64,000 nucleotides of DNA, taken from the IMG/VR virus record IMGVR_UViG_3300037400_003880; one strand, written 5' to 3'. The notes beneath the pieces were generated by a model. That model made no database searches. It was given only the letters and a program-made list of their open reading frames with translations, and had not been told where the DNA came from. The DNA is from a virus. Its lineage: Duplodnaviria; Heunggongvirae; Uroviricota; Caudoviricetes. The position numbers were made by a program, and so were the translations under genes. Positions 18,327 through 63,975 of the stretch are shown here, piece after piece (positions within the stretch are counted from its first letter, which is position 1; every line of letters begins with the position of its first letter).

Positions 18327-18349
18327 TGGTTGACTTTCTTTCTTTTTTG
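18314..18349 (+). terminator. rho-independent terminator (AGTCAACC..GGTTGACT plus T-run) whose 3' arm supplies the -35 of the next promoter
   Basis: Perfect 8 bp stem followed by TTCTTTCTTTTTTG. Marks the end of the TAG-dense late block. Confidence 0.7.
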
Positions 18350-18358
18350 TGATATAAT
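18330..18358 (+). promoter_or_regulatory. sigma-A-type promoter (TTGACT-17-TGaTATAAT)
   Basis: Consensus -35, 17 bp spacer and extended -10, located upstream of the helicase gene. Confidence 0.6.
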
Positions 18359-18391
18359 TTTTATAGAAAATGAAACACGGGAGGTACAGAA

Positions 18392-19477
18392 ATGAAATTT
18401 AATATTCGACAAGAGAAAGTTCTTAATGCTACTGAGCCTAAAATCTTATGTCTTGCAACAGCAGCTTGCGGCAAGACAAGGGTTTTAACAGAACGCATCC
18501 GTCTTTTAATTAATGAAAGAGGAGTATCTCCAAGAGATATTGTTGCAATTACTTTCACAAATATGGCTGCCGATGAAATGAAACGTCGTCTTGGTTCAAT
18601 TGCGAATGAAGCTTTCATTGGGACTATTCACTCTTATGGAAATAAAGTTTGTATTAATAATAACATTAATACTCAACCTTTTGTAGATAACTATGAATTT
18701 GATAAAATCCTAAAGAAAGCTATCACTATTCCCTCTGAACGTTATCCTCATATTAAGCACGTTCTAGTTGACGAGTGTCAAGACTTAAGCCCGTTAGAAT
18801 ATGCTTTTCTTGAGAAAATTCCAACTGAAAATATCTTTTTTGTTGGCGATAATCGACAGGCGATCTATGGGTTCAAGGGATCAACAGATGAATATCTTGT
18901 TTCCATGTATGAAGATGAAGCTTATAAAAAGTATTATCTTGTTGAAAACTATCGTAATGCGCAAGATATTCTTAATTTTGCAGATAGTTTAATTGCATCT
19001 TTTATTCAATTAAGTCCTAAGTCTATCCCCGTAAAGACAAAAAGTGGCGAAGTTATTAAGGAATCATTTTATGAAGCATTGGAAGAGCTTGAATATTCTG
19101 GTAATTGGGGATCTTGGTTTATCTTAACTCGCACCAATGCAGAATTGGCACAGGTTCAAGAAATGCTTGATCAGAAAAAGATTCCTAATATTACTTTCAA
19201 GAAAGGAGATCTCGACCTAACAGAGCTTGACCAACTTATGCAAAGTGATAGAGTTAAGGTTTTAACTATTCATTCTGCAAAAGGATTGGAGAATAAAAAT
19301 GTAATTGTAGTGGGCGCGCGAACTTACAATGAAGACGAGAGAAAGATTGCTTATGTAGGGGCAACCAGAGCAGAAAACCGCCTATATTGGTGTCCCGCAG
19401 TTTCGAGAAGAATTCGTGGTAGAAGAAAAGACTCTACAACCACAGGACATATTAAAACTGATATGATAGAGTTTTGA
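18392..19477 (+). CDS. SF1 DNA helicase (UvrD/PcrA-like)
   Basis: Walker A AACGKT, ITFTNMAADEM, Walker B VDECQD and VGDNRQAIYGFKG motifs. GGGAGG ribosome-binding site. No TAG. Confidence 0.8.
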   Translation: MKFNIRQEKVLNATEPKILCLATAACGKTRVLTERIRLLINERGVSPRDIVAITFTNMAADEMKRRLGSIANEAFIGTIHSYGNKVCINNNINTQPFVDNYEFDKILKKAITIPSERYPHIKHVLVDECQDLSPLEYAFLEKIPTENIFFVGDNRQAIYGFKGSTDEYLVSMYEDEAYKKYYLVENYRNAQDILNFADSLIASFIQLSPKSIPVKTKSGEVIKESFYEALEELEYSGNWGSWFILTRTNAELAQVQEMLDQKKIPNITFKKGDLDLTELDQLMQSDRVKVLTIHSAKGLENKNVIVVGARTYNEDERKIAYVGATRAENRLYWCPAVSRRIRGRRKDSTTTGHIKTDMIEF

Positions 19478-19482
19478 TATAG

Positions 19483-19692
19483 ATGGAGAATTTGGTTATC
19501 TATGATGATAATGAACTACAGATTGAGGTGGCGGGATGGTTCAATTATTATCTAAATAATATTTATGTTCCGACAATAAAGTTGAAAGATAAGCATTTTA
19601 AATCTTTGCTCCCATTTGTTACTACTCGATTATCTAAATACGATAGTCATTCATATCAAATAGCATATTGGGGCAAAGCCCCTATTTTTTAG
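19483..19692 (+). CDS. hypothetical protein
   Basis: Track ORF on the + strand. Confidence 0.4.
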   Translation: MENLVIYDDNELQIEVAGWFNYYLNNIYVPTIKLKDKHFKSLLPFVTTRLSKYDSHSYQIAYWGKAPIF

Positions 19693-19734
19693 TTTGATAA
19701 ATACATTTGTTTTGAGCCGCCCTTCGATATTTTT

Positions 19735-19983
19735 ATGAATGCTTAGGAATGTGTAAGCTCTTGTCCTTATGACATTTCTTAGAATCCAAAAGAATGTGAA
19801 GAGGCACTTGATGAATTGTACTAGTTAAAGGAAGGAGATAACTTTATTGCTCATATTTTTTACGAAAAGATTCATGAAATATAGGGATTCTTTGCTTATG
19901 TGAACTCTGAAACTTCTCAAATTTATGTAATGTTTTGGGGTTATAAACCTCCTACAGAGGAGGAACTTGATTAGTTTGTTTAA
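19735..19983 (+). CDS. hypothetical Cys-rich protein (82 aa) with 5 in-frame TAG
   Basis: ATG at 19735. Five TAG codons share one frame with no TAA or TGA until 19981-83. Not present in the standard-code ORF track. Confidence 0.5.
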
Positions 19984-20089
19984 TTTTCTGTAGATCCCTA
20001 TAGAAAATTTTACATTATATATGTCGCTATTTTAGCGATTGGCTTTTTGCCAGCGTAGTTTTCCTTTTTAATAAAAGGAGGAATTTTTA

Positions 20090-21331: not shown

Positions 21332-21360
21332 TTGACTTTATGATTAAAAAATGATATAAT
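21332..21360 (+). promoter_or_regulatory. conserved promoter (TTGACTTT..ATGATATAAT)
   Basis: Member of the promoter family of about 24 copies. Confidence 0.55.
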
Positions 21361-21389
21361 ATAATTAACAAAATAAAGGAGGAATGAAT

Positions 21390-24826: not shown

Positions 24827-26400
24827 GTGCGATTGTTGTAAATTTGTTTGGCGCGGCAGGTTGTGGAAAATGCTTCACAAAAGGAACTAAAGTTCTTATG
24901 TGGAATGGTGAAGTAAAAAATATTGAAGATATTTATGTTGGAGATTGGGTCATGGGAGATGACTCTAAACCAAGAGAGGTATTGGAATTACACAGAGGTA
25001 GAGCGCCGCTTTATTTATTAAAAAGAAGTTTTTCTAAAGATATTATTGTAAGTGCTAACCATATTCTATCTTTAATGAATTATCACAGGGATGGATCTTG
25101 GTCTTATGAAGATATTTCTATAGAAGATTTTCTTAATAAAAGTCTTAATTATCAGCGCAATTCAAGATTGTATAAGACATCTGTATCTTTTTCTACAGAA
25201 GCTGAAAGGAATAATCTTAAAATTGATCCGTATTACTTAGGCTATTGGCTTGGAGACGGCTTATCAGATACGATAAATCGTTTTTGTACCGCGGATGAAG
25301 AGATTATTGACTATTGTCGAGAATATGGAAGGAGAATTGGGTTGTCTCTTAAACAACATTCTTACAACGACGGGAAGTGTCAAACTTATTGTCTATCGGA
25401 GGGAAATATTGGCAATCACTCTTTCCATCCATTAAAAGGAAATATTTACAATCTTCGAAATAATAAGCATATACCAACAGAATATAAAACAACAACTTTG
25501 GAAAATAGACTTGCGCTTATTGCTGGTTTAATTGATTCTGATGGTTCTCTTAATAATACATCTTATGACTGGATAAATAAAAATAAGACTTTAGCTTTTG
25601 ATTTTTATCAGCTTGTTAATAGCTGTGGTTTAAGAGCTACAATAAGAGAATGCACAAAAAGTTGTGGAGATTTTTCTGGAACTTATTATCGAGTTAACAT
25701 AACTGGAGATTTAAAAATGATTCCAGTAAAAATAAAACGAAAAATTTGTTTGAATACTATACAGGATCCATCGAAAGTTTTAAGAGAAAGCTTTAAGGTA
25801 ATTCCCATTGGAGAAGGGGAGTATTATGGTTTTACTACTGATGGAAATCATCGTTTTGTATTAGATGACTGTACAGTAGTCCATAATTCAACTGCCGCGG
25901 CATATGTATTCTCTCAATTAAAAATGAGAGGAGTTAATTGTGAACTGGTTACTGAGTATGCGAAAGATTGTACTTGGGAAAATAGAGAGATGGTATTAAA
26001 TTGTCAAGAATATATTTTTGGAAAACAGTCTTATAGGTTAAAGCGATGCGCCGATAAGGTGGATGTAATTATTACTGACAGCCCTCTTCCTATAGGATTA
26101 TTTTACAATACTGATCCCGCATTGGATGATAATTTTAAGAATGTTGTTATGAATATTTATAATAAGTATTGTAACGTGAATTATCTTTTGACAAGAGTTG
26201 TGCCATATGACCCAGTTGGTAGGAATCAGACTCAAGAAGAAGCAGATATGATTGGGGATAAGATTCAAGATTTTCTTGATGATAATGATATTCCTTATGT
26301 TCATGGGATAGGGGATATTGATTTTTATAATCTTATCGTTAATCAAATTGTTTCAATATTAAAGCTTATAGAGGAAGAGGAAGAGGAGGCGAAAGAATGA
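24823..26400 (+). CDS. P-loop nucleotide kinase (dNMP-kinase-like) interrupted by an intein
   Basis: The Walker A motif GAAGCGK-[intein]-STAAAYV is split exactly at the K/S junction. The exteins together give about 186 aa with VIITDSP. Confidence 0.75.
   Translation: MSAIVVNLFGAAGCGKCFTKGTKVLMWNGEVKNIEDIYVGDWVMGDDSKPREVLELHRGRAPLYLLKRSFSKDIIVSANHILSLMNYHRDGSWSYEDISIEDFLNKSLNYQRNSRLYKTSVSFSTEAERNNLKIDPYYLGYWLGDGLSDTINRFCTADEEIIDYCREYGRRIGLSLKQHSYNDGKCQTYCLSEGNIGNHSFHPLKGNIYNLRNNKHIPTEYKTTTLENRLALIAGLIDSDGSLNNTSYDWINKNKTLAFDFYQLVNSCGLRATIRECTKSCGDFSGTYYRVNITGDLKMIPVKIKRKICLNTIQDPSKVLRESFKVIPIGEGEYYGFTTDGNHRFVLDDCTVVHNSTAAAYVFSQLKMRGVNCELVTEYAKDCTWENREMVLNCQEYIFGKQSYRLKRCADKVDVIITDSPLPIGLFYNTDPALDDNFKNVVMNIYNKYCNVNYLLTRVVPYDPVGRNQTQEEADMIGDKIQDFLDDNDIPYVHGIGDIDFYNLIVNQIVSILKLIEEEEEEAKE
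24871..25887 (+). mobile_element. intein (339 aa) with a LAGLIDADG homing endonuclease domain
   Basis: Begins with Cys1 (CFTKGTKVLMWNGE, Hint block A) and ends VVHN, followed by Ser+1. Two LAGLIDADG motifs are present (YLGYWLGDGL and LIAGLIDSDGSL). Confidence 0.8.
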
Positions 26401-27491
26401 GTTTTCCTGTAATGATTATCGTAGCAGTTATTATAGGCGGTTTAGCAGGAGCATTAGTTTATTTTATTACTAACAGACAGTCTGCAAAGAAGTTACCAAG
26501 AATTAACTTTAATGAGGCACAAGAAAAAGCAGTCCAAGGACTACAAAAAAAGAAGGACGCTTATGAAAAAGAGATGACTTAGGAAGCTCGATAGGAAGTC
26601 GCAGACTTTCTTAATAAGCTGAATGCAGAAAAGTGTAAGTTGTCAGATGAACTTACGGAATCTATCTGTGACCTTGAGGAGAAAAAACATTAGAATGAAA
26701 TGGCTTTAAAGCAGGCTGAACACGACTATTAGGAAAATGTTAAAGCCATGTAGAAGATTTGGCAAGAGTAGGAGAGCGCGGCGTATGAACGTAGGCGTGC
26801 AGATAATGAAAAAGTAATAGAATAGTTTGAAGCAGAAAAGAATGCCGAACTTGAGAAATTAAAGGTTAGTTATGGGCATAAAGAAAAGGGGCTGACTGAA
26901 GATTTTTTAGCATATAGCGCCGAGGTATCTATGAAAAGGGAGGCATTGACTAAGGAAATTGAAGCCTATGAAGCTCAACAGCGTGCCATAATAGAACGCT
27001 TTAAGAAAGATGAAGAGACAAGACAGTAGGTGGATTTTTATAGAATGATTTTATCAGAAAATGAAATTTTTGATATTAAAAAAATAAGAAGTATTGCTGA
27101 AGATTTACATAATCCTATTATTTTATATAAATTAATCTGGGAGAATTTTTATAAAAATAAATTTTCTGAATTAGTGGGAAGAGTTGCCGGAGATAAAAAA
27201 TGTGGAATTTATAAGATTACGAATCTTAAAAATTAGAAAAGTTATATTGGGCAGACTAGGTAGTCTTTTAAAGAGAGGTGGCGCACTCATGTAAAAAGAG
27301 GACTTAGAGCAGAGCCAACAACAAATAATAAATTATATTCATCTATGTGGGAAGACGGTGTGGAAAATTTTACTTTTGAAATAATTTGTTAGTGTTCTCC
27401 AGAGGAACTGAATGAACAAGAAAAACGCTATATTGCTTTTTATAATGCTTTGGAGTGGGGATATAATTCGACAGGGGGAAATACAAAATGA
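26397..27491 (+). CDS. membrane-anchored coiled-coil protein with C-terminal GIY-YIG nuclease domain (364 aa, about 12 in-frame TAG); could be two genes
   Basis: An N-terminal transmembrane helix is followed by a Q/E-rich coiled coil read through TAGs. The C-terminus GIYKITNLKNQKSYIGQT...RxxxH...E is a GIY-YIG motif. A GTG at 27030 or ATG at 27045 could start a separate GIY-YIG ORF. Confidence 0.5.
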
Positions 27492-27493: not shown

Positions 27494-28538
27494 ATGAGCA
27501 TTTATAATTAGAAAGAGCCTGTATCGGGTATCTATAAAATTGATAAAACCCGACTTGCAAACGATTGGTGTCTTGTACTATTGCCCATTAAAAGGCACGT
27601 ATTTTCGCAATTGCTCCAATACGAGCGAACGAAACACAAAATATTGAAAATGTTCAATCGTATGATTTGGGTGCAAATTATCGCAGAAACGTGTAACTTT
27701 TACCAACCAACTGCAAGTCGGGATTTAAATTGATTTTCCCAATGGAAAAAGCTATATTGGACAAAGCAACGATATTATTCGTAGAATAAGAGAGCATAAT
27801 TGTTCAAATAATAATTATCCAATTTCTCGTGCAATAAAAAAATATGGTAAAATTATTACATTTGATTTATTGGAACAAATATAGCCTGATCAAAAAGATT
27901 TAATGAATGAGCGAGAAAAATTTTATATAGAATATTATCATACAACAATTAAAGAAAAAGGTTATAATATCTCTTTGGGCGGCGGAGGCTATAAGAGAGA
28001 GATTCCTGATAAAATAATAGAGTTACAAAAAGATATTATAAACTCAAGTTATACATTTAAAGAATTAAGTGAGAGATATGGAATAGATATTTCTACAATA
28101 TCAAAGATAAATAATGGAAAAACATATTTTAATGATGCTCTTACTTATCCTCTTAGAAGTGAAAAGAAATATCACTCTCAAGTTTTGAGTGAAAATGAAA
28201 TAAATAAAGTTCGTTTTGAACTAAAAAATAATTATAAAAAAAGTATGTCAGAAATTAGTGAAGAATATCATACTAATATATCAATTATATAGAGAATTAA
28301 TAAGGGTATATCTCCTTATAAAAATTCAGATTATGTTTATCCAATAAGAAGTAAAAATAAAAATTTTTGTAAATTTACTTTAACTGAAGTATTAGAAATT
28401 ATATCTTTATTAAAAAATACAAATTTAACTTAGATAGAAATAGCTAAAAAGTTTAATTGCAACAGGAAGATAATAGGACAGATAAACTCTGGACAAAAAT
28501 ATTATATTGAAGAAGTAGAGTATCCAATTAGAAAATGA
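27494..28538 (+). pseudogene. GIY-YIG homing endonuclease (I-TevI/Seg-like) interrupted by a 190 bp insertion after the GIY motif
   Basis: Exon-like part 1 (27494-27547) encodes ..SGIYKIDK. Part 2 (from 27735, a different frame) encodes FPNGKSYIGQSNDIIRRIREH..KYG..GYNISLGGGG plus a C-terminal HTH repeat region. The frames are reconciled only if about 187-190 nt are removed. Confidence 0.6.
27545..27734 (+). mobile_element. MITE-like insertion (about 190 bp) with about 15 bp terminal inverted repeats and an 8 bp direct repeat
   Basis: Terminal inverted repeats AAAACCCGACTTGCA and TGCAAGTCGGGATTT. Flanking direct repeat AAATTGAT at 27537-44 and 27727-34. The element sits inside the GIY-YIG coding sequence. 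Confidence 0.55.
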
Positions 28539-28636
28539 CTTATATTAGTAGATATAGGATACAATATGAAAACTGGGTGATATAATGGAAATCATTGTAG
28601 CTTTATTAATTGGTGCAACGATCATGTTAAAGATTG

Positions 28637-28668
28637 TCAACTACTTATTAAGTAGTTGACTTTTTTCT
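28637..28668 (+). terminator. terminator hairpin (CAACTACTTATTAAGTAGTTG) overlapping the -35 TTGACT
   Basis: 10 bp stem followed by a T-rich tract. Confidence 0.55.
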
Positions 28669-28684
28669 TATTTTTTGATATAAT
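28656..28684 (+). promoter_or_regulatory. conserved promoter
   Basis: TTGACTTTTTT..TTGATATAAT. Confidence 0.55.
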
Positions 28685-28840
28685 ATAAGAGTAATAAGTA
28701 ATAATACCATTTTAATTATCTCATAAAGGAGTGAAAATAATGGGAGTCATCATATTATTCATTATATTATATTATGGAAGTAGGTTGCTTTGGAATATAA
28801 TAGCATCTATATTCTTTAAGTAATAAGAAAGGAGAATAAA

Positions 28841-52897: not shown

Positions 52898-52916
52898 GGT
52901 GTTAATCACCTCAGAT

Positions 52917-52994: not shown

Positions 52995-52996
52995 TT

Positions 52997-53090
52997 AAGA
53001 CAGCGCAGCAAATTTGAATAGCTCCATTTATATACACATAAAATGTATTTTAACAAAAGTGTCTCTGCTATAATGACACGAGCTGTCTTG
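52997..53090 (+). ncRNA. Y RNA-like element
   Basis: 5' AAGACAGCGCAGCAAATT ... 3' GAGCTGTCTTG. Confidence 0.4.
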
Positions 53091-53110
53091 TAATTTAATT
53101 CAAACTTATT

Positions 53111-53230
53111 AAGACTCTCCAGCAATCTGAGAAGGATTTCTTTCCAGTGTAGCCAAGTGGGTTAAGGCAGCGGCATCAAAGCCGTGATTCTCCGGTTCGA
53201 ATCCGGACTCCGGACAAAAAAAGAGTCTTG
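53111..53230 (+). ncRNA. Y RNA-like element enclosing a pseudo-tRNA (anticodon CAA, degenerate acceptor)
   Basis: 8 bp closing stem AAGACTCT/AGAGTCTT. The interior TCCAGTG TA GCCAAGTGGGTTAAGGC A GCGGC ATCAAAG GCCGT .. TCCGGTTCGAATCCGGA CTCCGGA has the Gln/Sup-like D-arm. Confidence 0.45.
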
Positions 53231-53236
53231 AGTTAT

Positions 53237-53309
53237 GGTGTAAGTGGTGAAATGGCTATCACGGCGGTTTGTGGCACCGCAGTTAAGAGTTCGATTCTCT
53301 TCTTATGCC
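53237..53309 (+). tRNA. tRNA-His (GTG) with encoded G-1:C73
   Basis: 8 bp acceptor GGTGTAAG/CTTATGCC. D-stem GTGA/TCAC. Anticodon stem GCGGT/ACCGC with loop TTGTGGC. T-arm AAGAGTTCGATTCTCTT. Confidence 0.7.
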
Positions 53310-53330
53310 CTTTATTTATCAATTAAAATA

Positions 53331-53359
53331 TTGACTTTTTGAGAAAAATATGGTATAAT
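53331..53359 (+). promoter_or_regulatory. conserved promoter
   Basis: TTGACTTTTTG..ATGGTATAAT. Confidence 0.55.
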
Positions 53360-53382
53360 ATTTATAGAAAGTGAGGGAAAAT

Positions 53383-54258: not shown

Positions 54259-54385
54259 AAGGTAGGTCAGCAAGAAGAACTAAAATTTTGTTCCAACTCT
54301 TATGTTGATGGTTCGAGTCCATCCTCACTCGCAAGTGTGAGTAGTTCAACTGGCAGAACAAAGGGTAAAAATTTAACCTATCTTG
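54259..54385 (+). ncRNA. Y RNA-like element with permuted tRNA-like module
   Basis: Closing stem GGTAGGT/ACCTATC with TCAGCAAG. Interior: T-arm GATGGTTCGAGTCCATC, acceptor 3' strand CTCACTC, loop GCAAGT, acceptor 5' strand GTGAGTA, D-arm GTTCAACTGGCAGAAC. Confidence 0.5.
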
Positions 54386-54894: not shown

Positions 54895-54923
54895 TTGACT
54901 TTCTTAGGAAAGTATGCTATAAT
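54895..54923 (+). promoter_or_regulatory. conserved promoter
   Basis: TTGACTTTCTT..ATGCTATAAT. Confidence 0.55.
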
Positions 54924-54989
54924 ATTATTATAGTGAGAAGATAAAACAGCAAACAAAAAGATTTATCTTGTGAAAAGGAGAAATGTGTA

Positions 54990-56459
54990 ATGAGTAATTT
55001 TGCAAACGCTTTTGGTAGAATGGCAGACATGACTATGACCGAGAATGGTGGACGCGCTTTCAGTACTACCGGTTCAGCTTTGCTTGACCTGTTCGCTAAT
55101 ATCGGTGGCATGAGAAATCGAGACACTTCTGATGTTGTTTCTGCATGGCAGGCAGCTCGGAAGGAAGATAAGGAGCTTGCGGATAATCTGATCCTCTATG
55201 CCCGTGATATTCGTAACACTGGTCTCGGTGAGCGTAAGATTGGTCGTGCCCTCCTGAAGGCTCTCGGTGATGCTGATCCTCAGAAGGTAATCCGTAACTT
55301 TGAAACCATTGTTGCGGCAGGTCGTTGGGATGACTTGTTCATCTTTGTGGGTAACCCTGCAATTGAGAACAAGATGTGGGATTATGTTGAAGAGCAGTTC
55401 CGTGCTGATGTAAAGGGTGTAAAGCTTAACCAGCCTATCTCTTTGCTCGGTAAGTGGATGCCTTCCATTAACACCAGCTCTCAGGAGACTCGTAAGCTCG
55501 CACGTCGTGCCTGCGCGCACTTGGGTCTGACTGAGCGTACTTATCGTAAGAGCCTTAGCGCGCTTCGTAAGCATATCAACATTGTTGAGCGTCTTATGAG
55601 CGCCGGCGAGTGGGATAAGATTGACTTCGAGTCTGTACCTTCTGTAGCTATGTCTCGTTATATCAATACTTATAACAAGCGTTGTCAGGAGCGTTTTGCT
55701 GAATACAAGGCTTCCCTCGTAAAGGGTGAAGCTAAGGTTAATGCAGCAACTTTGTATCCTTATGACATTGTTATGAAGGCATTGAATAGCGGATACTACG
55801 GGAAGATGACTCTTGATGCTGTTGACGAAGCACAATGGAAGGCTCTGCCTAACTATGTGTCTGGTGAGAATGAGGTCGTTGTAATGGCGGACGTGTCTGG
55901 TTCTATGAGCTGTGACATGAATCGTCCTATGGCAACTTCTATCGGTCTTGCCACCTATTTCGCACAGAGGAACAAGGGTGCATATCACAATATGTATCTT
56001 ACCTTTACCTCTCAGCCTGCTTTCATTCATCTCAAGGATGAGTGGAGTTTGGCAGACTGCCTTAACTATGTGAAGAGTCATGGTGTAGGTTATAGCACTA
56101 ATCTGGATGCGGCTTTCGCTGCAATCTATGAGGTTGCTGTTCGCACCAATGAAGCTCCAAAGGCACTGGTTGTAATCTCTGACATGGAGATTGATAGCTG
56201 GTACTCTGGTAACTTCTGCGACTCTATCGCAAGTAAGTGGGAGAGAAAGTATGCAGCCGTTGGCTTGAAGGCTCCTAAGCTTATCCTTTGGAACGTAGAA
56301 TCTCGTGGTGGACGTGTGCTCGCACAGCAGTCTGATCGTGTAGGTTTCGTTTCTGGATATGGCGTTGGTCCTTTCGCAAACTTGACCTCTCTTATCGACA
56401 AGAGTGCTTACGAGGCAATGAAGGAAATTCTTTCTAAGCCTGCATTCCAGTGGAAGTAA
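54990..56459 (+). CDS. Ro60/TROVE-like protein with C-terminal vWA domain (Rsr-like, DUF2828-type; tentative)
   Basis: AAAAGGAGAAA ribosome-binding site. An N-terminal alpha-helical region of about 290 aa is followed by a vWA MIDAS motif VVVMADVSGSMS and LVVISDMEID. Lies directly downstream of the Y RNA-like/tRNA array. Confidence 0.55.
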   Translation: MSNFANAFGRMADMTMTENGGRAFSTTGSALLDLFANIGGMRNRDTSDVVSAWQAARKEDKELADNLILYARDIRNTGLGERKIGRALLKALGDADPQKVIRNFETIVAAGRWDDLFIFVGNPAIENKMWDYVEEQFRADVKGVKLNQPISLLGKWMPSINTSSQETRKLARRACAHLGLTERTYRKSLSALRKHINIVERLMSAGEWDKIDFESVPSVAMSRYINTYNKRCQERFAEYKASLVKGEAKVNAATLYPYDIVMKALNSGYYGKMTLDAVDEAQWKALPNYVSGENEVVVMADVSGSMSCDMNRPMATSIGLATYFAQRNKGAYHNMYLTFTSQPAFIHLKDEWSLADCLNYVKSHGVGYSTNLDAAFAAIYEVAVRTNEAPKALVVISDMEIDSWYSGNFCDSIASKWERKYAAVGLKAPKLILWNVESRGGRVLAQQSDRVGFVSGYGVGPFANLTSLIDKSAYEAMKEILSKPAFQWK

Positions 56460-56492: not shown

Positions 56493-56722
56493 TGGCGGTT
56501 CAGCAACTTACTTTATGAGAAATTGGAGTTAAATTTATTTTAACAGGCTTTTGGCTGCCGAAGTCAAATGTGACCCATCGAGGACATGGGCAAAAATCCT
56601 AAAAGGTGCCGTCATGATATACGATTCTTCCAGCAATAGTGATGCTATGTTTAGGAAAATTTTACAATTATGCCTTGATTGAAGAGCAGAATCGTGCGGC
56701 ATTATAGTTTCTATAGTGCCGC
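56493..56722 (+). ncRNA. Y RNA-like element, long and divergent
   Basis: 5' TGGCGGTTCAGCAACTT ... 3' GTGCCGCTTTA. No ORF. Confidence 0.3.
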
Positions 56723-56731
56723 TTTATTTAT

Positions 56732-56760
56732 TTGACTTTTTTATAAAAATATGATATAAT
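56732..56760 (+). promoter_or_regulatory. conserved promoter
   Basis: TTGACTTTTTT..ATGATATAAT. Confidence 0.55.
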
Positions 56761-56787
56761 ATAAGTGTAGAAAGGAGAGATGGACTT

Positions 56788-56907
56788 ATGCATGAACTGC
56801 TTTCTTTACTTATGTTGTTAGTTCTTGTGCCGGCGGCAATAATCTTTATCGAGATTATTATTGAGCGTATTGAAGATGCTAAAGAAGGGGAGGATGAAGA
56901 TATGTGA
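56788..56907 (+). CDS. small membrane peptide (39 aa)
   Basis: AAAGGAGAG ribosome-binding site, then ATG at 56788. Hydrophobic with an acidic tail. Confidence 0.3.
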   Translation: MHELLSLLMLLVLVPAAIIFIEIIIERIEDAKEGEDEDM

Positions 56908-58586
56908 GTGTCGCTATTAGAATAACATTATCAAATGGAGAAGAAGCGTGGCTAAGAACAGAAGAAGTTGAAGTGGAAGAAATCCCTGACGCATTTGGTC
57001 AGCCAATGTCTTTAGATGTTCAATTTTTAGCTTAGACAGGTTCTTGGATAGAAAATCTTCTTAAAATCAATGAGTCGGTAAAAGTTTCTTAGCTTTTGTT
57101 AATAGTTGATAATGATAAGAAGATACAGATTGATTTTAGACGCTATGCATTAGGAGTTATGATGTGTCATTCAAGCAATTTGAATGGTACATCTGATATA
57201 TCCATTATTGGAGCTGGCGTTGCAACTGAATTTAAGGAAGGAGAGATTGTCTGTGTGAGTAAGAAGTTTTCTACAAAAATTGTAAGTGTAATATTCCCAG
57301 ATGAAAGGGGCAGATACACAGGGAAAACCTATAACTATTTTCTGCATGAGGAGCTACCACTCCCGAATCTTTCTGACAGGATTCAAATTAAATCAATCAA
57401 AGGTTTTGGGGATGTTGTGCCGTAGAAGCCCAGTTATAATGACAGAAGTGTTCTTGTAGTTGGCGCCTTTAATGTTACAGCAGATACTGTAGAAGAGTAT
57501 GCTGATAAAATTTTAACCTATGGCGATTGTCTGAAAACAATCTATAGCTATGAAATAACAAGTTCCTTAGTTTCAGATGTTGTACATCAGGAAAAGGAAG
57601 CTACTCTTTCTATTCAAGTAGACGATCATGAGAAACTTTGGCAAGACCTCAATAATGTAGTGGCTAATGCGCCTTATGGTTTCAGATTATCTGATATTAA
57701 TAATGAGCAAGTAAAGCTTGACTGTGAAGTTCTCCGCCCATTCTCTCTTTATACAAAGAGTGATTCGGGTGACTGGGTTCTTCGAGCTGAGCTTAAGCCA
57801 TATGGAAAGGAAAACGAAGTGAGAAACAAATATGTTGATGAATGGGATAGCCTTGTAAGTGCAGGAGCAATTCCGACTTACAACACAGTTGAAGAAATGG
57901 ATATTCCGAAGGAAGAAATGGTATATTTTGAGAAGAAAAAGGAGAGAAAATCAATGAAGAATATTTTTGGTAACATTATGAAGAACGTAAAGTTTGGTCA
58001 GCTCAATACTGACAAGGTCGCATATTCTATGCAGGGTATGGCTTTCAAGTCCAGTGACGGTGATTATCTCGTATACAAGAAGGATCAGCCGGCGGTTAAC
58101 GTAAATGAGTTTGTCATTGAGATGCCGCTGTTTGTGATGCCGGTCCCGCTGAAGGACCTTTAGGTTGGTGATATTATTTGCAGGGGTGAAGATTTTGTTC
58201 TTGTAGATAGTATCGGTGAGACTTATATTACCGCAATCAACACTGACAAGAGTGAGATTGTAACAATTGTTCCACAGGTAAATATGTTCGGCTTCTCCTT
58301 CTATAGTAAGGTAGTAGCTCCGACTAATCTGTTCGGCGAGGCAACTCAGGATAATCCGTTTGGTAATATTCTGCCGCTGCTAATGATGGATAATGAAGAT
58401 AACGATTCTTCTGCATTTGGTATGATGATGCTCATGAGCCAGATGAATGGCGGTAAGGGTATGAATATGGATTTCACTAAAATGGCTCCGTTTTTTCTGC
58501 TTGGCAATCAAAATGGAAAGGATGACACCTTCAAGATGATGGCTCTTATGTCTATGATGAATAGCGGCTCTGAAAAGAAGGAGTAA
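56904..58586 (+). CDS. hypothetical protein (about 560 aa, 5 in-frame TAG)
   Basis: GGGGAGG ribosome-binding site, then GTG at 56904. One frame joins track ORFs 57096-57425, 57660-58163 and 58284-58586 across TAGs. Met-rich C-terminus. Confidence 0.5.
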
Positions 58587-58591
58587 TTTTA

Positions 58592-58936
58592 ATGTTAGGT
58601 AACGTTCTTTTCTATGGAGGTATCGGGATCGCCATTATTGGCGGTCTCGGTATCATACGTTTTGATGGCTCTATCAAACGAGTTATTATTTGCGGAATTA
58701 TGATTATAGCAGGTCTTGCCTGCCTTGCAGTTGGGCAAGGAAAGCGTAATACAGCTCCTGTAAAGTATGAAATTGTTGAAGTGCAGTCTTTGAATAATAA
58801 CGATACGCAATATCGAGTTACACTAAAGGCTGGCGGAAATTCAACAATTTTGTACGTTGACGATAAGAAAGTAAAGGATTTTGTGGAGGGCGGCACAATT
58901 GAGCTTACAGCTCCACAGTTAAAGGAGTATCAGTAA
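58592..58936 (+). CDS. membrane protein
   Basis: Track ORF with two transmembrane helices. Confidence 0.5.
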   Translation: MLGNVLFYGGIGIAIIGGLGIIRFDGSIKRVIICGIMIIAGLACLAVGQGKRNTAPVKYEIVEVQSLNNNDTQYRVTLKAGGNSTILYVDDKKVKDFVEGGTIELTAPQLKEYQ

Positions 58937-59229
58937 TGACAGCAAACGAAGAAATGGGACTTGGAATTTTTGCAATTGTCTTGGTAATAATCCTTATAGG
59001 AGTAGTAGTTGGACTTATTGCTTATCAGAATTCGACTGGAGAGGATATGGTTGATTCCCATTTGAAAGATTATTCCTCTTTTACAGTCAATGGGGCTGAC
59101 TTTAAGACCGAGGATGTAGAAGGATATGACTATTTACCAAACGGTCACGAGAATGACGCAATCGTTTTCAATATGGAAAATGGCGATGAAGTTCACGTCC
59201 TTATTGATATGATTACTTGGCACGAATAA
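58936..59229 (+). CDS. membrane protein
   Basis: Track ORF with one transmembrane helix. Confidence 0.5.
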   Translation: MTANEEMGLGIFAIVLVIILIGVVVGLIAYQNSTGEDMVDSHLKDYSSFTVNGADFKTEDVEGYDYLPNGHENDAIVFNMENGDEVHVLIDMITWHE

Positions 59230-59235: not shown

Positions 59236-59264
59236 AAAGCCAGCTCACAAGGGCTGGCTTTTTA
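59236..59264 (+). terminator. rho-independent terminator AAAGCCAGC..GCTGGCTTTTT
   Basis: 9 bp stem followed by a T-run, immediately before a conserved promoter. Confidence 0.7.
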
Positions 59265-59265
59265 T

Positions 59266-59294
59266 TTGACTTTTTCCAAAAAATATGTTATAAT
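59266..59294 (+). promoter_or_regulatory. conserved promoter
   Basis: TTGACTTTTTC..ATGTTATAAT. Confidence 0.55.
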
Positions 59295-59315
59295 TATATT
59301 AAAGAGGTGATAGAA

Positions 59316-59717
59316 ATGGGTACATTAAAGAAGGAAGTCTGCAATGCAAGAATTGTTGATACTCAATTGGGGATTGAAGACCACGGTTTGCTTACGTTTA
59401 ATCTAAGATGTGAGTTCAAAGATTCCTATGGAAAAGGAACCTGCTCATTTGGTGGCTGTAGCTTTGGTAGTAGGTGTCTGAATTATGATGAAACTTATGA
59501 GTATATCAACGTTAAATTTACTTCAGAGTTGCTTATGAGAGTTCTCACTATTGTTGGAGTAAGGAATTGGGAAGACATCAAAGGAAAGCTTATTAGAATA
59601 AGAACAAATGGTCGTACAGGTTGTGCCGGCGGGATTGAAGCCATTGGAAATATTATCGAAGATGAATGGTTTTGTATCGAAGATTTTTACAGAGAGAAGG
59701 AAAATGAGGATAAATGA
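59316..59717 (+). CDS. hypothetical Cys-rich protein
   Basis: AAAGAGGTGA ribosome-binding site, then ATG at 59316. Confidence 0.5.
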   Translation: MGTLKKEVCNARIVDTQLGIEDHGLLTFNLRCEFKDSYGKGTCSFGGCSFGSRCLNYDETYEYINVKFTSELLMRVLTIVGVRNWEDIKGKLIRIRTNGRTGCAGGIEAIGNIIEDEWFCIEDFYREKENEDK

Positions 59718-59923
59718 GCATTTCATCAGTAACAATTTATTTATGTCCTAATTGCGGCAGTCTTCAGGCAAGCAATACTCTTGTCCCTTGGCATGGCACG
59801 GGCTATATACCTTATGACCAAGCCAAAATATGTCCTAAATGTCATGTTGTTCTTACATTAGAAACTTGGAACAGGAACGTTTTTGGAGTGCCTAAGTCAG
59901 ATGAATTGAAAAAATATATTTGA
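59714..59923 (+). CDS. small zinc-ribbon protein
   Basis: CPNCG...CPKCH. Confidence 0.45.
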   Translation: MSISSVTIYLCPNCGSLQASNTLVPWHGTGYIPYDQAKICPKCHVVLTLETWNRNVFGVPKSDELKKYI

Positions 59924-59929
59924 CTTTTT

Positions 59930-59948
59930 TGAAAAATAATGGTATAAT
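59930..59948 (+). promoter_or_regulatory. conserved promoter
   Basis: TTGACTTTTTT..ATGGTATAAT. Confidence 0.55.
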
Positions 59949-59978
59949 ATATATAGAAAGTTTGAGAGGAGAATGTGA

Positions 59979-60914
59979 ATGAAGCATTATGTAGATATTG
60001 AGCGTTTTAAGGTAAAGTACGACGAGTGCATGCGCGCCGGTGACGAGATTGTCGTACAAGAGAAGATTGATGGAGCCAATGCATCTTTTACTTACGATCC
60101 CGCACAGGATAAGGTTCTGGCTTTTTCTCGTAAGAATGAGCTGAATGAGGCAAATAATCTCCGTGGTTTCTGGGATTGGACTCAGCGTCTTGACAAGAAG
60201 GGTGTCGCTCATATGACTCAGAATGGTCGCTATGTAATTTTCGGCGAGTGGCTTGTAAAGCATACTGTTCGTTATCCTGAGCATGAGTATAATCATTTCT
60301 GGATGTTCGATGTATGGGATACGCAGGACGAGAAGTGGCTTCACTATGATGATGTTCGTGCAATTCATGCGGGACTTTTGAGTGTAGCCCAGCTCACGCA
60401 GGAGGTTATTAACTTCGTCCCTGTATTCTATGACGGTCCGTTCATTTCTTGGGATCACCTTTACCAGATGGTTGGACGTACTGACGTAAATGCGGAGCCT
60501 TGCGGCGAGGGCATCGTAATTAAGAACCAGAACACTATTGACATTCCGGAGTGGCGCCTGCCTACCTATGTCAAGATTGTATCGGAGAAGTTCTCTGAGG
60601 TTCACGTTGGTCATGCTAAGAAGCTCATTGATCCTGCTGTTCTTGCAGCTCGTGAGGCAGAGCGTCAGATGGTTGCGACTGTAGTTACCGAGCGCCGTGT
60701 AGCTAAAATATTGGAAAAGTTTGTAGATAATGGTATACTTCCAGAAGACTGGGACGAAAAAAATATGAAGGATGTTGCTAAGAATCTCCCTAAAGCAGTT
60801 TATGAGGATTGTATAAAAGAAGAACCAGATATTGTAAAAGCGTGTGAAGACTTTGGAAAAATATGTGGTAAGATTTCTATGGATTATGTTCGTCAATTTC
60901 TTTCTGCTCGATAA
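59979..60914 (+). CDS. ATP-dependent RNA ligase (Rnl2-like nucleotidyltransferase)
   Basis: Motif I EKIDGAN (adenylated lysine), motif IV EGIVIKNQ, motif V KIVSEKF. Size about 311 aa. GAGAGGAGAA ribosome-binding site. Confidence 0.7.
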   Translation: MKHYVDIERFKVKYDECMRAGDEIVVQEKIDGANASFTYDPAQDKVLAFSRKNELNEANNLRGFWDWTQRLDKKGVAHMTQNGRYVIFGEWLVKHTVRYPEHEYNHFWMFDVWDTQDEKWLHYDDVRAIHAGLLSVAQLTQEVINFVPVFYDGPFISWDHLYQMVGRTDVNAEPCGEGIVIKNQNTIDIPEWRLPTYVKIVSEKFSEVHVGHAKKLIDPAVLAAREAERQMVATVVTERRVAKILEKFVDNGILPEDWDEKNMKDVAKNLPKAVYEDCIKEEPDIVKACEDFGKICGKISMDYVRQFLSAR

Positions 60915-60969: not shown

Positions 60970-61884
60970 ATGGGAAAGTTCATTGATTTAACTGGATAGA
61001 AATTTGGACGATTAACTGTCTTAGAAAAAGATATGGAAAGAAGTAAAAATACAACTTATTGGAAATGTATCTGTGAATGTGGAAAAGAATTTTCCACAAG
61101 AGGAACTTCATTAAGAAATGGAAAAACAACTTCTTGTGGTTGTGCGCGAATCGAAAAAGTCAAAGAATCATTAACGATAGATTTAACAGGACAAGTTTTT
61201 GAAAATTTAACTGTAATTAAACAAGTTCAAACAGAAGAAAAAGGTGCTCATTGGTTATGTTCTTGTAAATGTGGAAATACAATTATTGTTAATGGAAGTG
61301 ACCTGCGTGCTGGCGTAGTAAAATCTTGTGGATGCTTATCAGGAAAATTGCAAAGTGCGTCTTTATGCAAAAAATTAGACGGACTAACTTTTGGAAAATG
61401 GCGCGTTATAGAAAGAGACCTAAAATAGATAGGAGACGGCGCAAGATGGATTTGCCAATGTCAATGTGGACAAATAAGAAGTGTTGCAGCAAGCAGTTTA
61501 ATTTCTGGAAGAAGCTTGTCTTGTGGTTGTTTACATTCCGCAGGGGAGTATAAAATTTCATGTCTATTAAATAAAAACAATATTCACTATGAAAAAGAAT
61601 ATATCTTTCCAGATTTGGTCGGAAATAAGTTGCCTTTAAGATTTGATTTCGCAATAAAAAATGACAATGATGAAGTCATCTGCTTAGTTGAATTTTAGGG
61701 CGAACAGCATTATAAATATTCTGATTACTTTGAAAAAAAACAAAGCTTCGAAGATCGCCAGAGATATGACCAGATGAAGCGAGATTATTGTCAAAGAAAA
61801 AATCTTTTGTTAATTGAAGTCCCATATTGGGATTATGAGAAATTAAATGATGATTATGTAAAGGAGTGGCTGAAGTCTCGATGA
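60970..61884 (+). CDS. Cys-repeat plus DUF559-like nuclease paralog 3 (304 aa, 3 TAG)
   Basis: AGGAGGTGA ribosome-binding site. LTGQKFGRLTV..W.C.C.CG..CGC repeats. LRFDFAI..VEF-TAG-GEQHY..RQRYDQMKRDYC..LLIEVPY. Confidence 0.55.
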
Positions 61885-62090
61885 AGAACTTCATTTCTGT
61901 TTTCTTTGTGATGATTGGTCTTGTCAGCTTAATTGCTGGCATCAGCATTATCTTGCAGACGGCTGTACTTTTTATTATAGCTTTGATTGCAAAGAATGTA
62001 ATTGGTGCTATATTTTGGGGGTTTCTCTGGTTTATTGAAATGTTGGTAATGAACTATGTCGTGAATTTTTATCATGGAGAGGGACAATAA
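61881..62090 (+). CDS. small membrane protein
   Basis: ATG overlaps the upstream stop. Two transmembrane helices. Confidence 0.45.
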   Translation: MKNFISVFFVMIGLVSLIAGISIILQTAVLFIIALIAKNVIGAIFWGFLWFIEMLVMNYVVNFYHGEGQ

Positions 62091-62101
62091 TATTAAAATA
62101 T

Positions 62102-62130
62102 TTGACTTTTTTCATAAAAAGTAGTATAAT
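62102..62130 (+). promoter_or_regulatory. conserved promoter
   Basis: TTGACTTTTTT..AGTAGTATAAT. Confidence 0.55.
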
Positions 62131-62160
62131 ATTTATAGAAAATGAAAAGGAGAGGGAACA

Positions 62161-62676
62161 ATGAGAAACTTACTTGTTGTCGTAGATATGCAGAATGATT
62201 TCATTACCGGCGCCCTGGCTAATCCAGAGGGGCAGAAGATTGTCGGGAAGATTGCGGATTTTATTTATGATTTTCCCGGAGGAGTTGTATATACCGCAGA
62301 CACCCATTATGATAATTATTTGGAAACTCAAGAAGGAAAGCGGCTTCCTATCTCTCATTGTATTGAAGGGTCTGAAGGATGGAGAATTGTTCCAGAAATT
62401 GAAAGAGCCCTTGAAGCTCGAGATGCAGCCCAGTTTATTAAGCATTCTTTCGGCAGCAGAGAACTCGCAAAATTTGTTCAGTATCATTTTTATGATGAAG
62501 TATATTTTGTCGGGGTTTGTACAGATATTTGCGTAATTTCTAATGCAATGCTTTGCAAGGCGTTTGCTCCTGAAATAAGGATTGTTGTGCTGAAGGATAT
62601 GTGTGCTGGCGTAACACCAGAAAGCCATGAGACTGCACTTAAGGCGATGCAGGCTTGTCAGATTGATGTTGAGTAA
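62161..62676 (+). CDS. pncA: nicotinamidase (isochorismatase-family cysteine hydrolase)
   Basis: VVVDMQNDF, catalytic Cys in VGVCTDICV, Lys/Asp triad context. Confidence 0.75.
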   Translation: MRNLLVVVDMQNDFITGALANPEGQKIVGKIADFIYDFPGGVVYTADTHYDNYLETQEGKRLPISHCIEGSEGWRIVPEIERALEARDAAQFIKHSFGSRELAKFVQYHFYDEVYFVGVCTDICVISNAMLCKAFAPEIRIVVLKDMCAGVTPESHETALKAMQACQIDVE

Positions 62677-62687
62677 GGAGAGTTATA

Positions 62688-63905
62688 ATGAGATTTGAAC
62701 CAATTATTAAGAGCTTGCTTGAAAACGATATGTATAAATTTAGCATGGGGCAGGCTATTTATCACCAGTTTCCTGAGTATATGACGACATGGACGTTTAA
62801 ATGTCGTAATGAAGGAGTTAAGTTTACTTATGAGATGGTCAAGGAAATCAAGGAGCAGATTAAAGCTTATTGCAGTCTCCGTTTTACGGAGGATGAGCTT
62901 GATTACCTCGATGAGATTAAGTGGATCAAGGGTTCGTATGTAAACTTCCTGCGTATCTGGCAGCCGAGATATGAGGACTTCGAGATTTCTGGCGAGGGGG
63001 CATACGGGCTGAGTATTGAAACCAAGGGAACGTGGCTTAATACTTCGATGTATGAGATTCCCGTGCTCGCAATTGTAAATGAAGTTTACTTCCGAATGCG
63101 CTATGATTACGACCATCTTTATCAGGTATTTAAGGAGAAGTTCCAGCAGAAGTCTAAAAAGCTTGTAAGTGGAGAATATCATATGGGGAGATTCTCTGAG
63201 TTTGGTCTTAGACGTAGGCTGTCTGGTGAAGCACAGGATTACGCAGTAAGAAATCTTCGTAATTTTTTGCTCAATAGTCTTGATCGAGCGAGATTCGTAG
63301 GAACGTCGAACGTTTATCTGGCAAAGAAATACGGACTTACTCCTGTCGGCACGATGGCGCATGAGTGGATTATGTGCGTAGGGCAAGGTAATCATCGACA
63401 CAATCCAGCTTATTCTAACTATTACGCTCTCAATGCATGGATTAAGGAATATGGCGTACTTAATGGTATCGCATTGACTGATACTATTACTACTGATGTT
63501 TTCCTGCGAGACTTTGACCTTGAGAAGGCGACCTTGTTTAGCGGAGTTCGTCATGATTCCGGCGACCCTCGTATTTGGGGTGAAAAGATTATTGACCATT
63601 ATTGCGAACTTGGTATTGATCCGCAGTCTAAGACGCTTCTGTTTTCGGATAGCCTTGACTTTGAGCGAGCTACATCTCTTTCCAACTACTTTTATGACAG
63701 AATCAATGTAGCTTTCGGTATCGGTACCTATCTATCTAATGATACCGATGTGCCGGCGCTCAATATCGTGATGAAACCAACATTTTGCAATGGACAGGAT
63801 GTGGCAAAGCTGTCTGATGCAGAGGGTAAGTGTATGTGTAAAAATGAAGCATATGTGAAGTACCTTAAGCGATCCATTGGATGGCGTATTGACCACGAGA
63901 TTTAA
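62688..63905 (+). CDS. pncB: nicotinate phosphoribosyltransferase
   Basis: Size about 405 aa. GTSN and TMAHEW motifs typical of NAPRTase. Adjacent to pncA. Confidence 0.8.
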   Translation: MRFEPIIKSLLENDMYKFSMGQAIYHQFPEYMTTWTFKCRNEGVKFTYEMVKEIKEQIKAYCSLRFTEDELDYLDEIKWIKGSYVNFLRIWQPRYEDFEISGEGAYGLSIETKGTWLNTSMYEIPVLAIVNEVYFRMRYDYDHLYQVFKEKFQQKSKKLVSGEYHMGRFSEFGLRRRLSGEAQDYAVRNLRNFLLNSLDRARFVGTSNVYLAKKYGLTPVGTMAHEWIMCVGQGNHRHNPAYSNYYALNAWIKEYGVLNGIALTDTITTDVFLRDFDLEKATLFSGVRHDSGDPRIWGEKIIDHYCELGIDPQSKTLLFSDSLDFERATSLSNYFYDRINVAFGIGTYLSNDTDVPALNIVMKPTFCNGQDVAKLSDAEGKCMCKNEAYVKYLKRSIGWRIDHEI

Positions 63906-63946
63906 AACAAAGGGGTGAGTTGTAATATACCGCCCCTTTTATTTAT

Positions 63947-63975
63947 TTGACTTTCTTTTTAATTTATGATATAAT
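63947..63975 (+). promoter_or_regulatory. conserved promoter
   Basis: TTGACTTTCTT..ATGATATAAT. Confidence 0.55.

Follow-up and report, generated by a model that had tools for sequence, protein, structure and literature searches.

The early promoters of phages SPO1 and SP82 carry hexamers of the TTGACT/TATAAT type together with a TG extension. In SPO1 and its relatives, clusters of strong host sigma-A promoters start the infection programme (PMC13401047), and in T4-like phages strong sigma-70-like early promoters are combined with stem-loops as promoter-early stem-loops (PeSLs), which occur in five arrangements including overlap with the -35 (Arbiol et al. 2010, PMC2839356; Comeau et al. 2014, PMC4122927). 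PeSLs flank cassettes of orphan genes, at the position of which a sister phage possesses a single element instead (PMC2839356, PMC4122927), and circular excision products (mini-circles) are formed during infection (PMC2839356). For recoded phages, it has been proposed that suppressor tRNAs are made early by the host machinery and then unlock the late recoded genes (Borges et al., bioRxiv 10.1101/2021.08.26.457843); promoters are not mentioned in that preprint or in the paper on the TAG-recoded Clostridia phages of the phAss-1 group (PMC10607447). In this study, we describe a promoter-like element that is repeated 26 times in a 64,000-nucleotide stretch (the window) of IMG/VR virus record IMGVR_UViG_3300037400_003880. 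The source of the window is an uncultured, TAG-recoded large phage of the gut or rumen with Firmicutes-style ribosome-binding sites.

The window was searched with the pattern TTGACT-N14-TGNTATAAT (17-bp spacer, at most one mismatch), and the 26 copies obtained all lie on the + strand, which also carries all plausible genes of the 64-kb window. The form TTGACT-N14-TGATATAAT is present in ten exact copies versus 0.00 expected from dinucleotide shuffles, and variants with spacers of 15, 16, 18 or 19 bp have no copies in the window. Scanning with a position-weight matrix (positions -6 to +42, counted from the first base of TTGACT) resolved two clean populations: the 26 sites scored 32–56 bits, the sole other site of at least 12 bits (19 bits) is the AT-rich copy 50473 in reverse complement, and the maximum in Markov shuffles was 7 bits. 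The -35 hexamer TTGACT (a five-of-six match to TTGACA) is invariant among the copies; the -10 hexamer is TATAAT in 23 and TATACT in three, and the TG of an extended -10 is present in 23 of the 26. Additionally, 26 of the 29 TTGACTTT words on the + strand fall inside the motif. An earlier reading of this DNA (hereafter the sequence-only reading) had counted 24 copies between 18330 and 63975, and precisely this number was found there, all on the + strand and with a 17-bp spacer. Its statement that no copy occurs in the first 18.3 kb is incorrect, as this region holds two, one without mismatch at 6133 (38 bits) and one with a single mismatch at 16679 (32 bits).

All copies are co-oriented with the genes and are either intergenic or reach no further into the upstream gene than its last codons. 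For 17 of 20 protein-coding units, the ATG follows the end of the -10 by 20–37 nt, with a GGAGG-like ribosome-binding site present, and in the tRNA units a tRNA lies 21–115 nt from the copy. Successive copies lie a median of 1.65 kb apart overall, with a mean of 1.98 kb within 18.3–64 kb, and eight copies within 5.5 kb (47863–53331) head units of small open reading frames (ORFs) and of tRNAs or small RNAs. The tRNA units and the amber-suppressor tRNA pair are each preceded by a copy, as had been suggested from the sequence alone, and so is the gene for a Ro-like protein. The predicted promoters, with the hairpins that adjoin some of them and the units that they head, are as follows.

6133–6172, + strand: promoter, 0 mismatches, 38.4 bits; heads the holin-like ORF 6212–6511 and the TAG-dense ORFs 7150–16682
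16679–16718, + strand: promoter, 1 mismatch, TG to AT (TAT TATAAT), 32.4 bits; heads the GH113 gene 16728–17819
18312–18369, + strand: composite of hairpin 18312–18337 (-17.6 kcal/mol) and promoter 18330; heads the helicase gene 18392–19477
21332–21371, + strand: promoter, 40.5 bits, position kept in related contig L080; heads phosphoesterase, ThyX-like and PAPS-reductase-like genes
28636–28695, + strand: composite of hairpin 28636–28660 (-17.4 kcal/mol) and promoter 28656; heads small ORFs, a DNA methyltransferase and a metallophosphatase
31470–31509, + strand: promoter (TAG TATAAT), 40.5 bits; heads the SPFH/Band7 gene
32662–32734, + strand: hairpin 32662–32690 (-22.1 kcal/mol), then 4 nt, then promoter 32695 (47.9 bits); heads a run of small ORFs
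37128–37197, + strand: hairpin 37128–37153, then 4 nt, then promoter 37158 (46.2 bits); heads about ten small ORFs
40922–40997, + strand: hairpin 40922–40950 (-26.5 kcal/mol) and promoter 40958 (54.2 bits); heads the metallophosphoesterase gene 41021–41593
42537–42576, + strand: promoter (TATACT), 46.5 bits; heads the polynucleotide kinase/HD gene 42601–43503
45805–45869, + strand: composite of hairpin 45805–45841 (-23.6 kcal/mol) and promoter 45830; heads ORF 45884–46549
46550–46589, + strand: promoter, 45.8 bits, abutting the stop codon of ORF 45884–46549; heads 46605–47866
47863–47912, + strand: promoter and leader; heads a small ORF with its ATG at 47913
48052–48091, + strand: promoter, 49.4 bits, kept in related contig L073; heads tRNA-Gln 48116–48190 and tRNA 48194–48268
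48281–48320, + strand: promoter, 53.5 bits; heads a 59-aa ORF, 48331–48510
48512–48551, + strand: promoter, 53.9 bits; heads tRNA-Lys and tRNA-Ser (48655–48933)
49196–49235, + strand: promoter, 47.6 bits; heads the amber-suppressor tRNA pair 49293–49439
49536–49575, + strand: promoter, 38.3 bits; heads tRNA-Gly(TCC) 49614–49687
50473–50512, + strand: promoter with the top score, 56.4 bits; heads tRNA-Met, tRNA-Glu, tRNA-Met and the YrlA-like RNA candidate 50863–50973
53331–53370, + strand: promoter, 49.5 bits; heads a 79-aa ORF and tRNA-Leu, -Cys, -Gly, -Arg and -Ser
54895–54934, + strand: promoter, 46.4 bits; heads the Ro60/TROVE-like (DUF2828) gene 54990–56459
56696–56771, + strand: hairpin 56696–56722 (-22.1 kcal/mol) and promoter 56732 (49.0 bits); heads 56788–59229
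59236–59305, + strand: hairpin 59236–59261 and promoter 59266; heads 59316–59923
59920–59959, + strand: promoter, 52.4 bits, with no promoter at this place in L073; heads the RNA ligase gene 59979–60914
62102–62141, + strand: promoter (TAG TATAAT), 50.2 bits; heads 62161–62676 and the NAPRT-like gene 62688–63905
63947–63986, + strand: promoter, 54.2 bits, preceded by a hairpin (about 63914–63940; -16.6 kcal/mol by RNAfold); the unit extends past the end of the window

Conservation extends to columns on which the copies had not been selected. The four positions after TTGACT are T in 26, 26, 21 and 24 of the 26 copies, and the other conserved columns of this kind in the window are an A-rich distal spacer, TA ahead of the TG and ATTTATAGAAA behind the -10, where the copies share W-W-W-W-A-T-A-G-A-A-A after TATAAT. 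A further 93 distinct sites, taken from related contigs and not picked for these columns, show the same conservation: the ATWTATAGAAA block holds 0.7–1.2 bits per position at these sites, and T at -17 (two bases before the TG) is found in 92 of the 93, as well as in 20 of the 26 copies of the window. The resulting phage consensus reads TTGACT / TTTT / nnn / AAAATA / TG N / TATAAT / ATTTAT / A(+1) G / AAAG, with a predicted start T(-1)A(+1)G(+2) at 7 nt behind the -10, an AT-rich discriminator of 6 nt and a purine-rich initial transcript. These conserved columns and the strict spacing agree with the -35 TTGACT with T-run, 17-bp spacer and extended -10 that had been described from the sequence alone.

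A survey of start sites mapped across 49 bacteria (Kuo et al. 2025, PMC12641261) provides a template with which this consensus may be compared. In the generic spacer, a thymine-rich tract adjoins the -35 and is followed by a stretch of low signal, another A/T tract and finally a G-containing region with the TG (TRTG in Firmicutes); the start site is centred 7 bp after the -10 within a 3-bp start element (YRY, or YRR in Terrabacteria), the Terrabacteria discriminator is AT- or AG-rich, and the initial transcribed region of Firmicutes is AG-rich (PMC12641261). Every element of this generic Firmicutes core promoter is matched by the phage motif. The conserved +1 region that the sequence-only reading had noted is borne out, and corresponds to the discriminator, start element and initial transcribed region of an ordinary Firmicutes promoter. 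Since each conserved block coincides with a generic host core-promoter element, phage-specific recognition would be needless. The motif differs from host promoters in that these rarely combine all consensus elements at once, while the phage window has 26 such copies in 64 kb.

The consensus was found at 237 distinct sites when related phage contigs were considered together with the window. Among IMG/VR contigs, many of them 100–180 kb in size, 52 stretches contain the strict 27-base motif, usually with several copies per stretch and on one strand. The motif is also present in phage-like contigs binned into genomes of Clostridia, Bacilli and Erysipelotrichaceae. Contig L001, which was retrieved through its Ro-like protein (64% amino-acid identity) and not through the motif, carries seven co-oriented copies in 21 kb. 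Between the relatives and the window, coding DNA is 65–70% identical and promoter segments are approximately 90% identical. The closest relative is L073 (94% identity in the Ro-like protein, approximately 82% in DNA); of the 12 window copies within the region common to both, 10 have an orthologous copy there, with ungapped identities of 0.95 for the -35 and T-run, 0.84 for the spacer, 0.88 for TRTGN and the -10, and 0.83 for the discriminator and start, versus 0.48–0.72 for the upstream and 0.52–0.64 for the downstream flank. That the core is better conserved than its flanks points to purifying selection on the whole 45-bp element. Promoter 53331 has a weakened orthologue in L073 (TTTACT and TAG TATAAT), and promoter 18330 is kept upstream of the helicase gene in L080. 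The exact consensus, strict spacing, placement and conservation above the flanks render the promoter reading well supported in silico.

Bacterial assemblies searched for the extended motif yielded 18 matches, among which nine loci were multi-copy, eight of these nine being low in GC; with multiple copies and low GC, such loci look like phage contigs that were binned into genomes. The use of the same extended motif by host chromosomes was not taken as evidence, as the single-copy matches on higher-GC contigs (GC 0.42–0.51) are at approximately the number estimated for chance with the hexamers taken as given. Single exact copies of the 26-base motif were observed in three higher-GC contigs from Lachnospiraceae, Oscillospiraceae and Ruminococcus assemblies (L056, 6883–7060; L066, - strand, about 5997–5830; L067, - strand, about 1991–1820), L066 and L067 being homologous, and each precedes a non-coding unit of about 80–90 nt with a terminator at its end; either these units are host small RNAs that follow the same promoter grammar, or the matches may be due to chance.

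Nine of the 26 copies possess a hairpin (-16 to -26 kcal/mol) next to the -35 or overlapping it, the remaining 17 being without a strong stem. At 18330, 28656 and 45830 the 3' stem arm contains TTGAC(T), and the following T-run would be the U-tract, while at 32695, 37158, 40958, 56732, 59266 and 63947 the stem ends 4–10 nt ahead of the -35. A further hairpin (6074–6100, after the endolysin gene) lies 33 nt upstream of promoter 6133. Conversely, of the 14 terminator-like hairpins with at least 10 pairs on the + strand, eight touch a promoter copy. Across the 237 sites, a perfect inverted repeat of at least 7 bp with a 3' arm that includes TTGAC is present in 10%, versus 0.55% of controls (approximately 18-fold). 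The proposal that many copies sit inside or after a hairpin whose 3' arm provides the -35 is therefore right in kind and too broad in extent, as about one third of the copies are affected and the 3' arm is shared in three.

The window combines TAG-recoded and standard-code regions. Long-ORF coverage of 8–16 kb rises from 0.09 to 0.96 once TAG is read as sense, and in-frame TAG amounts to 13.3 per 1000 codons in 1.1–16.7 kb versus 1.6 in the ordinary genes of 16.7–64 kb. The region from 48.1 to 54.8 kb contains 19–20 tRNAs, among them two with anticodon CTA (49293–49368 and 49369–49439). The phage thereby resembles the recoded Clostridia phages (PMC10607447; 10.1101/2021.08.26.457843), which exceed 100 kb, possess dozens of tRNAs including tRNA-CUA, carry TAG inside late genes and standard-code replication genes, and have predicted Clostridia hosts. 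The suppressor unit also stands behind a promoter copy in L073 (P4603, tRNA-CTA twice) and in L001 (P3483, tRNA-CTA). The TAG-dense block comprises the following features.

4841–6061, + strand: endolysin gene (protein-family match)
6212–6511, + strand: ORF for a holin-like membrane protein (phrog_18218 match), next after the endolysin gene
7150–16682, + strand: large TAG-dense ORFs, none of known family
16728–17819, + strand: GH113 glycoside hydrolase gene (E=1.7e-104), free of TAG

Since the large TAG-dense ORFs of 7.1–16.7 kb returned zero Pfam or PHROG matches, they are only presumed to be structural, and the endolysin and holin-like protein are the sole grounds for calling the block late. 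The contrast between early and late regions drawn by the sequence-only reading is broadly right with respect to TAG density and copy density (24 copies in the 45.7 kb of 18.3–64 kb, where many ORFs are shorter than 150 aa, versus two in the TAG-dense 18.3 kb), and the first gene behind the promoter is TAG-free in nearly all units. However, the late block does hold copies, ahead of the holin-like and TAG-dense ORFs (6133) and of the GH113 gene (16679); a separately controlled late operon does not, therefore, follow from the distribution of the motif, and promoter 6133, which precedes TAG-dense genes, shows that the class extends beyond standard-code units. By-eye inspection of promoter-less intergenic regions of 1–31 kb for a second (late) promoter motif gave nothing convincing. 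The promoter between the endolysin and holin-like genes (6133) is absent at the orthologous L080 site, and a promoter variant precedes the GH113 homologue in L081 and not in L080; both late-block copies are thus lineage-specific, and the GH113 gene with its promoter inside the TAG-dense block forms a moron-like unit.

Three differences between the window and L073 have edges at promoters. In the window, a 221-aa ORF (45884–46549) lies between promoters 45830 and 46550, while L073 has a single promoter, P1367, and lacks the ORF; to its left, hairpin included, P1367 aligns with 45830, and to its right with 46550. At the L073 site orthologous to promoter 47863, neither the promoter nor its leader is present, and a ribosome-binding site is all that is kept ahead of the same small ORF. 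The leaders of 47863 and 48281 share an identical stretch of 35 nt, and the L073 orthologue of 48281 differs, which indicates that the copy arose within the lineage of the window. Finally, behind promoter 59266 (L073 14336), homology ends at the end of the promoter and resumes at the RNA ligase gene, with unrelated genes between.

These arrangements resemble PeSLs in several respects: near-consensus host-sigma promoters are repeated with a stem-loop upstream of or overlapping the -35, both are concentrated among small non-essential genes, and a cassette found in one phage may be lacking in a close relative, which then carries one hybrid element in its place (here 45830/46550 versus P1367). In contrast to the T4-like PeSL phages of Gram-negative hosts, the window phage is TAG-recoded and has Firmicutes-type signals, its stems are ordinary GC/AT hairpins rather than polyG/polyC, a strong stem-loop is found on about one third of the copies, and the elements also head tRNA and suppressor-tRNA units. 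No T4 core genes were seen in the window, and we class the elements as PeSL-like in their working and not as members of the original T4-like set. As regards SPO1, megablast against phage records gave no match, and no phage sigma cascade was identified in the window; moreover, the copies range over more than 45 kb instead of clustering in a terminal host-takeover module.

We consider it likely, at a probability of roughly 80%, that the copies are full-consensus promoters for the housekeeping sigma factor of the host (sigma-A/sigma-70 type), firing on naked phage DNA, partly insulated by terminators and secondarily serving as recombination linkers. We infer that unmodified host polymerase would recognise the motif and fire every copy, from the predicted start site, on DNA entry; the timing is presumably early, by analogy with SPO1-type and T4-type phages (PMC2839356) and given the standard code of the first genes. 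In this way, the two-thirds of the window that are non-structural would be split into 24 or more short units, all co-directional. Eight of them are tRNA/small-RNA units, among which the amber-suppressor tRNA unit would enable TAG recoding of the lysis genes and of the large TAG-dense ORFs. In about one third of the copies, a predicted intrinsic terminator abuts the promoter or uses its -35 hexamer and T-run, and with such insulation the expression of a unit would depend mainly on its own promoter. As near-identical direct repeats of about 50 bp, the elements appear, by a presumed mechanism of homologous recombination, to be linkers for the gain, loss and replacement of promoter-bounded cassettes.

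Several observations weigh against parts of this interpretation. The two copies in the TAG-dense late block indicate that the class may not be strictly early, and the window represents 64 kb of a genome of probably 110–180 kb, so that a phage sigma factor or polymerase may lie elsewhere. A crude RNAfold test for hairpins upstream of the -35 gave weak enrichment (22% versus 16%; 237 sites). The recombination role derives from three events in one pairwise comparison, and alignments tend to end at conserved islands. Furthermore, most other indels are not at promoters (44286–45261, homing-endonuclease-like; 51008–51771, a 763-nt insertion; L073 6490–7432), and no promoter-bounded cassette events were found among related contigs L012, L024 and L053, where indels lie elsewhere.

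Alternatively, the motif might represent middle-class promoters read by a sigma factor or RNA polymerase of the phage, or by a host polymerase that the phage has appropriated, in which case the T-run and ATTTATAG would be phage-specific. Approximately 10 bits are conserved beyond the hexamers and are common to phages whose genes are only 55–65% identical, and the search for sigma factors covered part of the genome only; yet each of the extra blocks coincides with a generic host core-promoter element, the geometry is the canonical 17 bp, and a Pfam scan of 40 TAG-free window proteins detected no sigma or RNA polymerase domain. MotA-box promoters and promoters of phage sigma factors are not known to have a -35 at the canonical 17 bp. 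The TAG-free first genes would, in addition, be translatable by the host machinery, and we regard a phage factor as very unlikely. It is improbable that the copies are primarily operators through which a phage or host DNA-binding protein shuts early transcription off, via the quasi-palindromic T5-N3-A5 spacer or the TATAAT-ATTTATA region. Perfect palindromic spacers (TTTTTATAAAAA) at 47863, 50473 and 56732 and the small Zn-ribbon and helix-turn-helix-like proteins encoded in the window would suit this function, whereas the A-run is missing at 18330, 28656, 45830 and 63947 and only 29–71% conserved in relatives, generic spacers likewise have a T-tract and then an A/T-tract (PMC12641261), and no candidate repressor was identified. 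An operator function is possible as an overlay on the promoter role.

The copies could also be near-identical through recent spread or homogenisation of one selfish or mobile promoter cassette, rather than through selection on each copy. The leader shared over 35 nt by 47863 and 48281, with a differing L073 orthologue and an L073 site without a promoter, and the single L073 promoter that corresponds to two window promoters are what such spread would produce. However, the identity between copies generally ends at about -10 and about +45, inverted terminal repeats and target duplications are lacking, and the same consensus recurs across divergent lineages and at orthologous positions, which requires purifying selection; we thus deem spread as the main cause very unlikely. 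It is an addition to the host-promoter explanation and not a replacement for it, as it accounts for the 47863/48281 pair but not for conservation across lineages. A transposon or miniature inverted-repeat transposable element was considered and rejected on the same limits of copy identity (about -10 and about +45) and the lack of terminal inverted repeats.

A bolder extension of the host-promoter explanation concerns the amber-suppressor tRNA pair, which occupies a 340-bp segment between promoter copies 49196 and 49536. The promoter/terminator modules might be exchange points of a cassette system in a recoded Firmicutes phage clade, with the suppressor pair as a plug-in, self-expressing unit that moves by promoter-to-promoter recombination; we hold this to be unlikely. 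If true, the code switch would be mobile between phages, offering a concrete route for the repeated gain of suppressor tRNAs by standard-code relatives, and it would be transcribed from the first moment of infection, its timing then being set after transcription.

Further annotated genes of the window are listed below.

18392–19477, + strand: helicase gene (protein-family match)
21390 onward, + strand: phosphoesterase, ThyX-like and PAPS-reductase-like genes
Within the unit of promoter 28656, + strand: DNA methyltransferase and metallophosphatase genes
31530–32474, + strand: SPFH/Band7 gene
41021–41593, + strand: metallophosphoesterase gene
42601–43503, + strand: polynucleotide kinase/HD gene
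54990–56459, + strand: gene for a Ro60/TROVE-like (DUF2828) RNA-binding protein
59979–60914, + strand: RNA ligase gene
62161–62676, + strand: ORF, followed by the NAPRT-like gene 62688–63905

Megablast of 10 kb of the window against 50,697 phage records gave zero nucleotide matches, and the closest annotated phage proteins are at most 41% identical. Among the tRNAs lie genes for polynucleotide kinase/HD, Ro-like, RNA ligase, NAPRT-like, isochorismatase and Macro domains (42601–43503, 54990–56459, 59979–60914, 62161–63905), which suggests an RNA-repair and NAD-salvage toolkit, perhaps against host defences that cleave tRNA or deplete NAD. Homing-endonuclease-like genes (GIY-YIG and HNH; 26397–27491, 27870–28538, 34162–34893, 44373–45275 and 60970–61884) have the highest TAG density of all (21.6 per 1000 codons) though they lie within the standard-code region, and the one at 44373–45275 is missing in L073. 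ORF 24898–26400 (500 aa) has a weak PHROG match to the large terminase subunit over residues 9–255 only, and its local sequence resembles an intein or homing-endonuclease insert rather than a terminase ATPase. Two sub-threshold YrlA matches (50863–50973 and 54299–54363; 35.9 and 33.1 bits, gathering score 69) lie near the Ro60/TROVE-like gene, no Y RNA in the window reaching the Rfam gathering score, and the word GGT(T)CAGCAA(C/T) occurs in three non-coding stretches (48553–48562, 51874–51884 and 56496–56506). Of the tRNA-like gene 53143–53215 and the tRNA 48194–48268, one has an abnormal anticodon loop (ARAGORN '???', Rfam tRNA 41 bits) and the other was found by Rfam only (35.9 bits).

Two leaders were also noted. 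That between promoter 49196 and the first suppressor tRNA (49225–49292, 68 nt) is almost invariant relative to L073 4632–4699, with about two differences over the 80 nt downstream of the -10 in genomes that are approximately 82% identical; it matched no Rfam family and may be a structured or processing element. The tRNA-Gln leader (48092–48115) forms a hairpin, GTGAGGG-loop-CCTCAC, which is retained in L073 (2879–2903), where the loop is altered and the stem is longer.

Strong host-type promoters in composite promoter-terminator modules are a known and ordinary design, here in a new lineage; current understanding is unchanged, and an expected picture is filled in. The idea of promoter-terminator modules as cassette borders is hereby extended beyond T4-like phages, and the motif provides a ready transcription map for an uncultured, TAG-recoded phage lineage of more than 100 kb, in which the grammar of promoters and ribosome-binding sites alone indicates a Firmicutes host. 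As a promoter part for Clostridia or Bacilli, the consensus is compact and probably very strong. The suppressor tRNAs stand under the same class of host-type promoter as the genes in standard code, which, at the level of transcription signals, fits the early-switch model of Borges et al., and the position of the suppressor unit behind this common promoter implies that any delay arises after transcription.

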